From positions 447 to 64,446 of the forward strand of contig JBJMLO010000028.1 in the NCBI GenBank assembly GCA_045805265.1: DNA of 64,000 nt, given 5' to 3'. Origin of the DNA: Actinomycetota bacterium (GTDB lineage Bacteria; Actinomycetota; UBA4738; JACQTL01). Both the position numbers and the translations under genes were made by a program. Within the stretch, counting starts at the first letter, position 1; every line of letters begins with the position of its first letter. The notes below the pieces were generated by a model. The model saw only the letters and a list, made by a program, of their open reading frames with translations. It was not told the DNA's origin and did no database searches. Below are positions 36,406 to 38,611 of the stretch, one piece after another.

Positions 36406-38168
36406 GCGATCGGTGCCTCCGCCGGGTCGAGGGCCGGCTCCGTGCACTCCGGCCCCAGGATGATGTCGTCGTTCGAGCCGCCGGCCGGGACCATCGGGAA
36501 CACCATCTCGCCGGGGTCGCACCGGAAGTCGATGACGACGCTGCGGTCGGTCACGGACAGCGCCTTGTCCAGCACGGCGTCCACGTCGTCGGGGGACTCC
36601 GCGCGGAGCCCGATAGCGCCGTAGGCCTCCGCCAGCCGGACGTAGTCGGGCACGTCCTGGGACAGGTACACGCCCGAGTACCGCTCGTTGTAGAACAGCT
36701 CCTGCCACTGCCGGACCATGCCGAGGTGGCCGTTGTTGACGATGGCCACGACGATCGGGATGTTCTCGGTGGTGGCCGTGGCGAGCTCCTGCGAGGTCAT
36801 CTGGAAGCAGCCGTCGCCGTCGATGGCGACCACCCGTTCGTCCGGCCGCCCGACCTTCGCGCCGAGCGCCGCCGGGACCGCGAAGCCCATGGTCCCCAGG
36901 CCGCCCGAGTTGATCCACTGCCGGGGCCGGGAGAACCGGTAGAACTGCGAGCCCCACATCTGGTGCTGGCCCACCCCGGAGACGATCGTGGCGTCGCCGT
37001 CGGTCGCCGCGTGGATGCGCTCCACGACGAACTGCGGCTTGATCGGCCCGTCCTCGGCCTGGGTGTAGCGGTAGGGGAAGCGCTTCCGCCAGTCCTCGAG
37101 CTTCGCGAGCCACGCCGTCCGGTCGGGCGCGCCTCCGGCTGCGGCCTGGGCCCGCTCCAGCTCGCGGGCGAGTGCGCCGGTCACGTCCGCCGCGTCGCCC
37201 ACGATCGGGACGTCCGCCGCGCGGTTCTTGCCGATCTCGGCGGGGTCGATGTCGACGTGGACGACCTTCGCGTCGGGGGCGAACGTCGCCAGGTTCCCGG
37301 TGACCCGGTCGTCGAAGCGCGCGCCGATCGCGACCAGCAGGTCGGCCCGCTGCATGGCGGTGACGGCGGTGTAGTTCCCGTGCATGCCCGGCATGCCGAG
37401 CGAGAGCTCGTGGTCGTCGGGGAACGCGCCCCGAGCCATCAGCGTGGTCACGACGGGCAGGCGGCCGGCCTCGGCCAAGCGCCGCAGCTCGGCGGAGGCG
37501 TTGCCCCGGACCACGCCGCCCCCCGCGTACACGACCGGCCGCTCCGACGCGAGGATCAGCTTCACCGCTTCGCGAACCTGCTTGAGGTTCCCCTTCGTGG
37601 TCGGCCGGTAGCCCGGGAGGTCGACGCCGTCGGGCCACTCGAACGGCGCGGTGCCGATCAGCACGTCCTTCGGCACGTCCACCAGGACCGGCCCGGGCCG
37701 GCCGGTCGTGGCGACGTGGAAGGCCTCCGCGATCGCGGCCGGGATGTCCTCGGGGCTCGTCACCAGCCAGTTGTGCTTCGTGACCGACATCGTCACCCCG
37801 GTGATGTCGGCTTCCTGGAAGGCGTCGTTTCCGATCACGCTGGTGGGCACCTGGCCGGTGACGGCGACGACCGGGATGGAGTCCATCAGCGCGTCGGCAA
37901 GTGCCGTGACCAGGTTGCAGCCGCCCGGCCCGCTCGTGGCGAAGCACACGCCGGCGCGGCCGGTGGCGTGCGCGTACCCCTCGGCCGCGTGCCCGGCCCC
38001 CTGTTCGTGCCGCATCAGCACGTGGCGGATGGAGGACTCGATCAGCGGGTCGTACGCGGGCAGGATCGCGCCGCCGGGAATGCCGAACACGACCTCGGTG
38101 CCCGCCAGCTCGAGCGAGCGGATCAGCGCCTGTGCGCCGGTGGGCCGGGCGGGGAAGCTCGTGCTCAT
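36402..38168 (-). CDS. ilvB: acetolactate synthase large (catalytic) subunit
   Basis: 588 aa from [20 protein letters not shown]; TPP motif GDGCFQM…NN; upstream part of the listed 753-aa ORF judged read-through. Confidence 0.9.
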
Positions 38169-38611
38169 CAGGAGCTCGCTCCCGGGGCCGGATCGGCGGT
38201 GCGTCGCCCGTTGCCGTGGTCGCCCTTGGCCGCCATGTCCGCGGGGGGCGGGTAGGCCGCGGTCGCCATGCGCGGGACCGGGGCTGCGGTGGCCTTCGCG
38301 TGGCCGTTGCCGCCGGACGGCCGGACCTCGACCGCCCCGGAGGGTGTGCGTTCGACGCGGAAGCCCATGCGGTGCGCCAGGGCCAGGCACGCCCGCTCGA
38401 ACTCCCACGGCGTCCAGTCGCGCCGGCGGATCTGGAACGCCTCCTCCTGGCCGAACCCGGTGGACAGGTACGTCGTCTCGGCTGCGAAGTACTCGGCCAG
38501 CTTGCGGCGATCCGCGGGATCGCGGACCTCCAGGGTCACCTGCCCGGGTCCCTCCCACTGCGCGGCGCCGACCGGGGTGCCGTCCTGCGTGAACTCGAAT
38601 CGCATCGCCAT
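38168..38611 (-). CDS. hypothetical protein (147 aa) translationally coupled to ilvB (TGATGA stop/start overlap)
   Basis: Strong RBS AGGAGGAG 6 nt before ATG 38611; globular-looking N-terminal about 90 aa ([42 protein letters not shown]…) plus Ala/Pro/Gly-rich tail; no recognisable family. Confidence 0.55.

Follow-up and report, generated by a model that had tools for sequence, protein, structure and literature searches.

The window analysed here is a 64,000-nucleotide (nt) stretch of DNA from an uncultured actinobacterium (Actinomycetota; contig JBJMLO010000028.1 of assembly GCA_045805265.1), and its reverse strand carries a small gene of 145 to 147 codons directly ahead of ilvB, which encodes the catalytic subunit of acetohydroxyacid synthase (AHAS). 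We found that this small open reading frame (ORF) is a genuine gene under purifying selection and that it opens an attenuated ilvB-ilvN-ilvC-leu operon for branched-chain amino acids (BCAA). As far as sequence searches can tell, its product defines a previously undescribed family, so far confined to uncultured Actinomycetota. We propose, with a probability of about 0.4, that the small protein could be a trans-acting accessory or regulatory partner of AHAS (IlvB/IlvN). What is new is the conserved uncharacterised first cistron; what is known is the classical attenuated ilvBNC operon around it.

The small gene is the first cistron of an attenuated ilv operon

A protein-coding gene preceded by a strong ribosome-binding site had been proposed at this position in a model's earlier reading of the letters alone (hereafter the first-pass annotation), and the gene is confirmed. 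The ORF and its translation are exact. GC content at the three codon positions is 0.71/0.53-0.60/0.92, compared with 0.71/0.49/0.97 in ilvB, and the ratio of nonsynonymous to synonymous substitution rates (dN/dS), calculated against five relatives of about 78% identity, is 0.23-0.40. The Shine-Dalgarno sequence (SD) AGGAGGAG abuts the first ATG (38611) with zero spacer and stands 6 nt before the second one (38605). Because the aligned homologues all begin with MRFEF or MRYEF, the identical protein in NCBI (P0001) has 145 amino acids (aa) and the SD spacing points the same way, the true start is probably the ATG at 38605.

The operon runs from a promoter-like site through a leader peptide, a hairpin, a terminator and the small gene to ilvB, ilvN, ilvC, a LeuA/CimA-like gene, leuC, leuD, leuB and a second LeuA-like gene (Table 1). 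This site is placed such that transcription would start a few nt before the leader ATG at 38849, so that the leader peptide would be read from a leaderless or near-leaderless transcript. This peptide, MRTRRDCSSFAPVDVLVLIT, and the terminator are found 175 nt upstream of the small gene. The same arrangement recurs in homologous loci. Of 93 such loci, 90 have, at 95-190 nt ahead of the small gene, a short ORF whose last codons read (A/V/T)LVLI-x-stop, and in 80 a GC hairpin with a T run, usually with a much stronger TTTTT tail than that of the window, separates leader and small gene. Since leader and terminator precede the small gene and are not placed between it and ilvB, the small protein is the product of the first cistron under attenuator control. 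Rfam found no known RNA family in positions 38100-39100 and offers no model for this attenuator. When minimum-free-energy (MFE) folds of the leader were calculated with ribosome masking, the terminator formed in every state and no antiterminator could be reconstructed; the switching mechanism of the Streptomyces coelicolor ilvB leader was likewise historically unresolved (PMC1262725).

The small ORF itself is not a BCAA leader peptide of the ivbL/ilvL type. With 145-147 aa it is far longer than the roughly 10-40 codons of such leaders, its Ile/Leu/Val content is 9-12% with no run of these residues, and the terminator lies upstream of it. On this point the first-pass annotation was right, although it had missed the real 20-aa leader (38849..38787) and its terminator (38747..38724).

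Linkage with ilvB is extremely persistent. The catalytic subunit gene follows the small gene directly in about 110 loci overall, and it is the immediate 3' neighbour in about 80 of 83 genome loci. In the second of the two subfamilies described below it was found downstream in every locus with enough DNA, including all 20 informative metagenome loci. The divergent members P0138 and P0166 also precede ilvB, and the linkage persists at identities as low as about 30%. The distance matrix of the small protein correlates with those of IlvB, IlvN and IlvC at 0.88-0.91, and we therefore conclude that it has been inherited vertically together with the operon. Whether orthologues always adjoin ilvB had been posed as a check in the first-pass annotation; the answer is nearly always, with two exceptions (loci L019 and L088) to which we return below.

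At the junction in the window, TGATGA, the TGA stop of the small ORF (38170..38168) shares its A with the ilvB ATG, the 1-nt overlap that had been annotated. The ilvB start could be assigned in about 97 unique loci. Stop and start overlap in 63 of these (55 as ATGA or GTGA, 8 as TGATG), as is usual in subfamily 1, and a spacer of 0-100 nt separates them in 28, to which almost every subfamily 2 locus belongs. An SD-like GGGAG for ilvB is carried inside the 3' end of the small ORF of the window (38178-38187). Many overlapping loci have a GGAGG about 10 nt before the ilvB start, also within the small ORF, in codons that read P-E-E-V or A-P-E-A; because these codons encode the SD of ilvB, part of the conservation seen at the C-terminus of the protein may be a constraint at the RNA level.

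Family, composition and predicted fold

Relatives of the small protein numbered 390 with a single-sequence search and 611 with a profile of the two subfamilies, so that conservation, whose absence elsewhere would have counted against the first-pass annotation, extends well outside this genome. All 611 come from metagenomes or metagenome-assembled genomes (MAGs) of uncultured organisms labelled Actinomycetota or Actinomycetes, and all are called "hypothetical". A scan of GTDB species representatives found a relative in 209 genomes, and among the matches listed all 80 were MAGs. An exhaustive search with hidden Markov models and profiles yielded 77 clusters in total among 1.84 billion cluster representatives; the family is therefore narrow. 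No match was obtained with tblastn against the PLSDB plasmids, and no paralogue of the small gene was found within the 64-kb window.

The absence of a recognised family, already remarked on from the letters, was confirmed. Pfam and NCBIfam assigned none to the window protein, nor did Pfam to 15 members of subfamily 2; no Pfam domain was found in any of the relatives, and a sequence-profile search of the PDB gave nothing below E=0.5. A candidate match to Mrr_cat (PF04471) was rejected, since it scored 14.2 bits, below the cut-off of 21 (E=0.049), covered 29 of 115 profile positions and did not include the catalytic D-(D/E)xK region. Two apparently multi-domain relatives, P0180 (a TPR/CHAT protein) and P0192 (a eukaryotic RhoGAP), are spurious matches. 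Apparent fusions with ilvB (P0122, P0124, P0136 and P0145) are frameshifted read-throughs into that gene, and there are no genuine domain fusions. In long-read (MFD) assemblies, as in loci L036 and L079, the small ORF lacks a stop or appears "fused" to ilvB and continues into Arg/Pro-rich nonsense, which is consistent with indel errors in high-GC homopolymers and not with real fusions.

The domain shared by the family is about 95 aa long and carries two motifs, W-x-G-P-G-x-V at the turn between strands b2 and b3 and R-R-D ... F-x-R-A at the junction of b5 and a2, both of which are present in the window protein. This protein belongs to subfamily 1, which carries WEGPGQV; the pattern of subfamily 2 is MKFEFENG..GTAEWxGPGxV...ERRDxSExAFxRAA..LAAYSYKV. 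In an alignment of 24 sequences 22 positions are invariant. Across both subfamilies (128 sequences) the number of invariant columns falls to zero, and E6, W19, P22, G23, V25, D31, F42, E45, R63, D65, F71, R73 and A74 are each kept in 90% or more of the sequences.

The domain is acidic (median isoelectric point, pI, 4.8; net charge -6) and poor in the amino acids that the operon makes. Ile, Leu and Val together account for 12% of the window domain (family median 11.6%), with no run of them in the ORF; the 31 confident ORFs of the window all have at least 15.2%, with a median of 21.4%. Such a low content is unusual in a folded domain, and it fits a protein that has to be synthesised while charged BCAA tRNAs are limiting.

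The first-pass annotation had described a globular N-terminus followed by a disordered Ala/Pro/Gly tail, and structure prediction bears this out. An AlphaFold2 (AF2) model of residues 1-100, built from the 128-sequence alignment, has a predicted local distance difference test score (pLDDT) of 87 and a predicted template-modelling score (pTM) of 0.77, with about 92 residues confidently folded. The elements are b1 3-9, b2 12-21, b3 24-29, a1 32-43, b4 45-50, b5 58-63, a2 68-82 and b6 85-89, and the predicted fold is thus a compact acidic alpha/beta domain in which an N-terminal beta-hairpin is followed by a beta-alpha-beta-beta-alpha-beta arrangement. The final 50 or so residues are predicted to be disordered (pLDDT below 50 for residues ~96-133), and this tail is found solely in the closest clade.

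Foldseek searches of the PDB with two models gave no match with E below 0.1. Ferredoxin-like, ACT, NIL, PII and Lrp-RAM structures appeared only as non-significant matches (best E 0.12, template-modelling (TM) score about 0.3), and we therefore claim no fold membership. Against BFVD two neighbours of marginal significance were obtained, the Bacillus phage proteins A0A3G3BWC4 (E 4.7e-4) and S5M924 of phage Shanette (E 2.1e-3), with a TM score of about 0.6. These are the sole structural neighbours at that level; they differ in being only 14-15% identical, are unannotated, share no genomic context and tell us nothing about function. On these models the fold is probably novel.

Possible roles of the small protein

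Given how persistently the gene adjoins ilvB, AHAS is the most economical target for its product. It is possible to hypothesize the following course of events. When charged Leu, Val or Ile tRNAs are scarce the LVLI attenuator would open, and the small protein would be made along with AHAS; in most lineages the ribosomes finishing the small ORF would go on to ilvB; the protein might then act on AHAS, for example in assembly or activation of the holoenzyme or in tuning its feedback inhibition. The median pI argues against a nucleic-acid-binding regulator and in favour of a protein or ligand partner. Evidence on how the protein acts also comes from locus L019 (MAG SMAG_U3770, DASXAQ010000001.1, 6001-6315), where the small gene is unlinked from ilvB, flanked upstream by a GNAT gene and downstream by a convergent GH5 cellulase gene, and nevertheless retains an LVLI-type leader, MSRQSAFATPHVAAVLLIR (ending AAVLLIR). 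Protein and BCAA control thus appear to be selected together, which argues for action in trans. From these sequence patterns, induction by BCAA limitation and action in trans are probable.

Several observations weigh against AHAS as the target. Apart from L019, there is one more locus in which the small gene is away from ilvB, L088 (DASZZZ010000018.1, 6001-6279), where the most divergent member, P0279, lies 33 nt upstream of a leuA-like gene. Its cluster, which looks unrelated and has no LVLI leader, encodes an AdoHcyase, a methyltransferase, the large and small aconitase subunits, ComA (phosphosulfolactate synthase) and a PAPS reductase, and it may represent a specialised 2-oxoacid elongation or sulfonate pathway. 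The operon already encodes a canonical IlvN. In mirror-tree and partial correlation analyses (r 0.88-0.92) the small protein covaried no more with IlvB or IlvN than with IlvC, a comparison without power in either direction since the known IlvB-IlvN pair was not singled out. Foldseek, the PDB profile search and hhalign revealed no sequence or structure similarity to known AHAS-binding proteins. It should also be noted that we infer the induction by starvation, the binding to AHAS and any influence on the enzyme.

The overlapping junction, too, counts for less than it first seems to. The first-pass annotation had read it as implying co-translation in a fixed stoichiometry with AHAS, which goes too far: overlaps are common throughout this operon (ilvB/ilvN, ilvC/leuA, leuA/leuC and leuB/leuA2 overlap as well), the SD of ilvB is embedded in the small ORF, and stop and start are spaced in the 28 loci mentioned above, with subfamily 2 typically having 31-54 nt and an independent SD. 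Coupling, although frequent, is therefore not universal and not specific evidence for a stoichiometric complex. A bolder form of the proposal is in our view rather doubtful: the protein would be a third AHAS component or a dedicated BCAA-starvation effector, produced first on opening of the LVLI attenuator and almost free of Ile, Leu and Val to allow its synthesis under starvation, and it would reprogram the enzyme, for example through relief of valine feedback or holoenzyme assembly. If true, a large uncultured actinobacterial lineage would control AHAS through an additional layer, with a protein of new fold.

A different possibility is that the protein responds to starvation without binding AHAS at all. 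Its trans target would then be, for example, a transcription factor, a different BCAA enzyme such as LeuA or a component of the stringent response or of the ribosome, or else it would sense a BCAA or a 2-oxoacid through a pocket formed by Arg-Arg-Asp and Glu. The LVLI-type leader (AAVLLIR) kept by the unlinked copy and the position of P0279 before a leuA-like gene, not ilvB, are both in line with this idea, and a composition poor in Ile, Leu and Val would suit synthesis under starvation. The conserved charged residues E6, D31, E45, R63, R64, D65 and R73 could form a ligand site, and the core elements follow each other as in the ligand-sensing ACT, RAM and PII-like domains. However, the Foldseek matches to these domains are weak and the protein has no significant similarity to any of the three; being acidic, it is unlikely to bind RNA or DNA directly, and its neighbourhood contains no conserved partner regulator. 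Moreover, near-universal adjacency to ilvB over deep divergence exceeds what co-regulation needs. We consider this explanation unlikely, though it deserves to be kept in mind.

The small protein might instead be an enzyme or metabolite handler of the BCAA pathway, which would stabilise or channel acetolactate or acetohydroxybutyrate, both of them labile, or render a reactive intermediate harmless, as RidA does in the service of IlvA. The gene is embedded in a purely biosynthetic operon, the protein has invariant polar residues, and small ferredoxin-like folds include isomerases, muconolactone isomerase being among the weak Foldseek matches. These matches stay at E of 0.1 or above with a TM score of about 0.3, though, and the protein resembles no enzyme family; every organism studied has a complete pathway without such a protein, and the relatives are limited to a single uncultured lineage. 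A role of this kind seems improbable to us.

It is also conceivable that the ORF acts mainly in cis and that the peptide is secondary. Its translation would deliver ribosomes to ilvB by termination and reinitiation, protect the mRNA beyond the attenuator from Rho-dependent polarity or decay, or provide a second translational checkpoint. The frequent ATGA/TGATG overlaps (63 of ~97 loci) would be explained, as would the 32 loci that have no recognisable SD for ilvB, and with so few BCAA codons ribosomes could cross the ORF during starvation. What such an ORF would not call for is conservation at the protein level, which is evident here from the invariant positions, the confident predicted fold and the low dN/dS; in addition, subfamily 2 is uncoupled, having a spacer and its own SD, and the standalone copy of L019 has nothing to couple to. 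We therefore hold a mainly cis-acting role to be quite improbable.

Finally, long spurious ORFs abound in high-GC genomes and the protein has no match in curated families, but a chance ORF or annotation artefact of GC-rich DNA, with no functional gene, is effectively refuted by conservation, given the GC signature at third codon positions, dN/dS below 0.4, 611 homologues, presence in at least 209 species-level genomes, conserved motifs and a confident predicted fold.

Surrounding genes and comparison with known systems

Features of the operon are collected in Table 1. The frame of leuC was recognised from GC content at third codon positions and from the translation; the ORF of that interval that was submitted to Pfam (31838-33238) is in the wrong frame and gave no match. 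Both LeuA-like genes (33228-34811 and 28492-30177) carry HMGL-like, HCS_D2 and LeuA_dimer domains; one of the two probably encodes a citramalate synthase (CimA), which would serve isoleucine synthesis from pyruvate. Homologous loci have an aconitase gene after leuA. Between the ilv promoter region and a divergent gltB lies a 283-aa ORF (39037-39888, reverse strand) without a Pfam match, with a hydrophobic N-terminus and a repetitive body rich in Gly, Ser, Thr and Val, which gives it the appearance of a secreted or surface-associated protein. Relatives such as locus L003 have ilvD and a GDSL lipase gene in its place.

Table 1. Features of the ilv operon and its upstream region, in positions of the window
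Feature	Position	Strand	Basis and remarks
Sigma-70-like promoter, TTGACC-18 nt-TATCAT	38861..38890	-	10/12 matches; 0.0 expected in shuffles
ilv leader peptide ORF and stop, 20 aa	38787..38849	-	Sequence; regulatory codons Val-Leu-Val-Leu-Ile
Strong GC-rich hairpin right after the leader stop	38751..38786	-	MFE folds; candidate for a pause site or an alternative structure in the attenuator
Intrinsic-terminator-like hairpin GGCCCTTCGC-AGAC-GCGAGGGGCC with weak T tract GTTCGCTTTC	38714..38747	-	Attenuator terminator
SD of the small gene	38612..38619	-	Spacing favours ATG 38605
Small gene ahead of ilvB	38611/38605..38168	-	147 aa (145 aa from the second ATG); translation as in the first-pass annotation
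Conserved folded domain, aa 1/3 to ~92	38336..38611	-	Alignments and AF2 (predicted)
Disordered Ala/Pro/Gly-rich C-terminal tail and stop	38168..38335	-	pLDDT below 50 (predicted)
ilvB, AHAS catalytic subunit, 588 aa	36402..38168	-	Pfam TPP_enzyme_N/M/C, E 1e-37 to 1e-57
ilvN, AHAS regulatory subunit, 181 aa	35860..36405	-	Pfam ACT_AHAS_ss and ALS_ss_C; ATGA overlap with ilvB
ilvC, ketol-acid reductoisomerase	34795..35841	-	Pfam KARI_N and KARI_C
LeuA/CimA-like gene	34811..33228	-	Pfam
leuC	~33219..31870	-	GC at third codon positions and translation read by eye
leuD	~31848..31275	-	Pfam
leuB	31261..30170	-	Pfam
Second LeuA-like gene	30177..28492	-	Pfam

AHAS and the ilvBNC attenuator are textbook systems, and AHAS is a target of herbicides and of anti-tuberculosis work. 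That an extra conserved cistron has been kept between attenuator and ilvB in at least 209 species-level genomes suggests that a component so far overlooked takes part in controlling or assembling the first common step of BCAA synthesis, and the depletion of the small protein in Ile, Leu and Val would be an example of a product built for synthesis under the very starvation to which it responds. Defining the family would also remove a recurrent "hypothetical protein" from the MAGs of soil actinobacteria. Although the hosts are uncultured, the small protein and IlvBN are open to heterologous expression, and the hypothesis can be tested.

Leader-peptide attenuators of actinobacterial ilvB genes have been published for Corynebacterium (the upstream ORF of ilvB-II), Mycobacterium tuberculosis (the "LVVI" leader of ilvB1) and Streptomyces (PMC1262725, PMC10272879, PMC13236596), and in M. 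tuberculosis the structural gene begins about 40 nt past the U tract (PMC13236596). The window has in common with them a short ORF ending in VLVLI, after which come a GC hairpin and a T run. In the studied actinobacteria, however, ilvB comes directly after the attenuator, whereas here a conserved gene of 95-147 aa is inserted between the two.

The small regulatory subunits IlvN, IlvH and IlvM offer a second comparison. Like them, the small protein is an alpha/beta protein encoded in the operon of the catalytic subunit, often with overlapping codons, and the predicted order of its core elements resembles that of an ACT domain. Unlike them, it precedes ilvB, carries an additional beta-hairpin at its N-terminus, has no Pfam match and no significant Foldseek match, and coexists with IlvN. 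That it might be a diverged or duplicated IlvN was examined and rejected: hhalign against 66 IlvN sequences of the same loci gave a probability of 0.3%, and there was no match to ACT_AHAS_ss (PF22629), ACT or ALS_ss_C (PF10369).

Small proteins with a regulatory role are found elsewhere. In Bacillus subtilis anti-TRAP (RtpA), a zinc-binding protein of 53 aa, is induced through the sensing of uncharged tRNA by a leader and binds an RNA-binding regulator in trans. The logic of a starvation-induced, trans-acting protein would be alike, but the two have no sequence or structure relation, and for the small protein no target resembling TRAP is known. Among small modulators of central metabolic enzymes, the glutamine synthetase inactivating factors IF7 and IF17 of cyanobacteria, and PirC, show that proteins of at most 150 aa can tune a key biosynthetic enzyme by direct binding. 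They are unlinked to their targets, mostly disordered or of unrelated fold, and inhibitors, whereas the small gene is linked in an operon and would be induced together with its presumed target. By analogy, the small protein may have a role like that of an extra regulatory subunit of AHAS or of a protein of the anti-TRAP type, while being a member of neither family.

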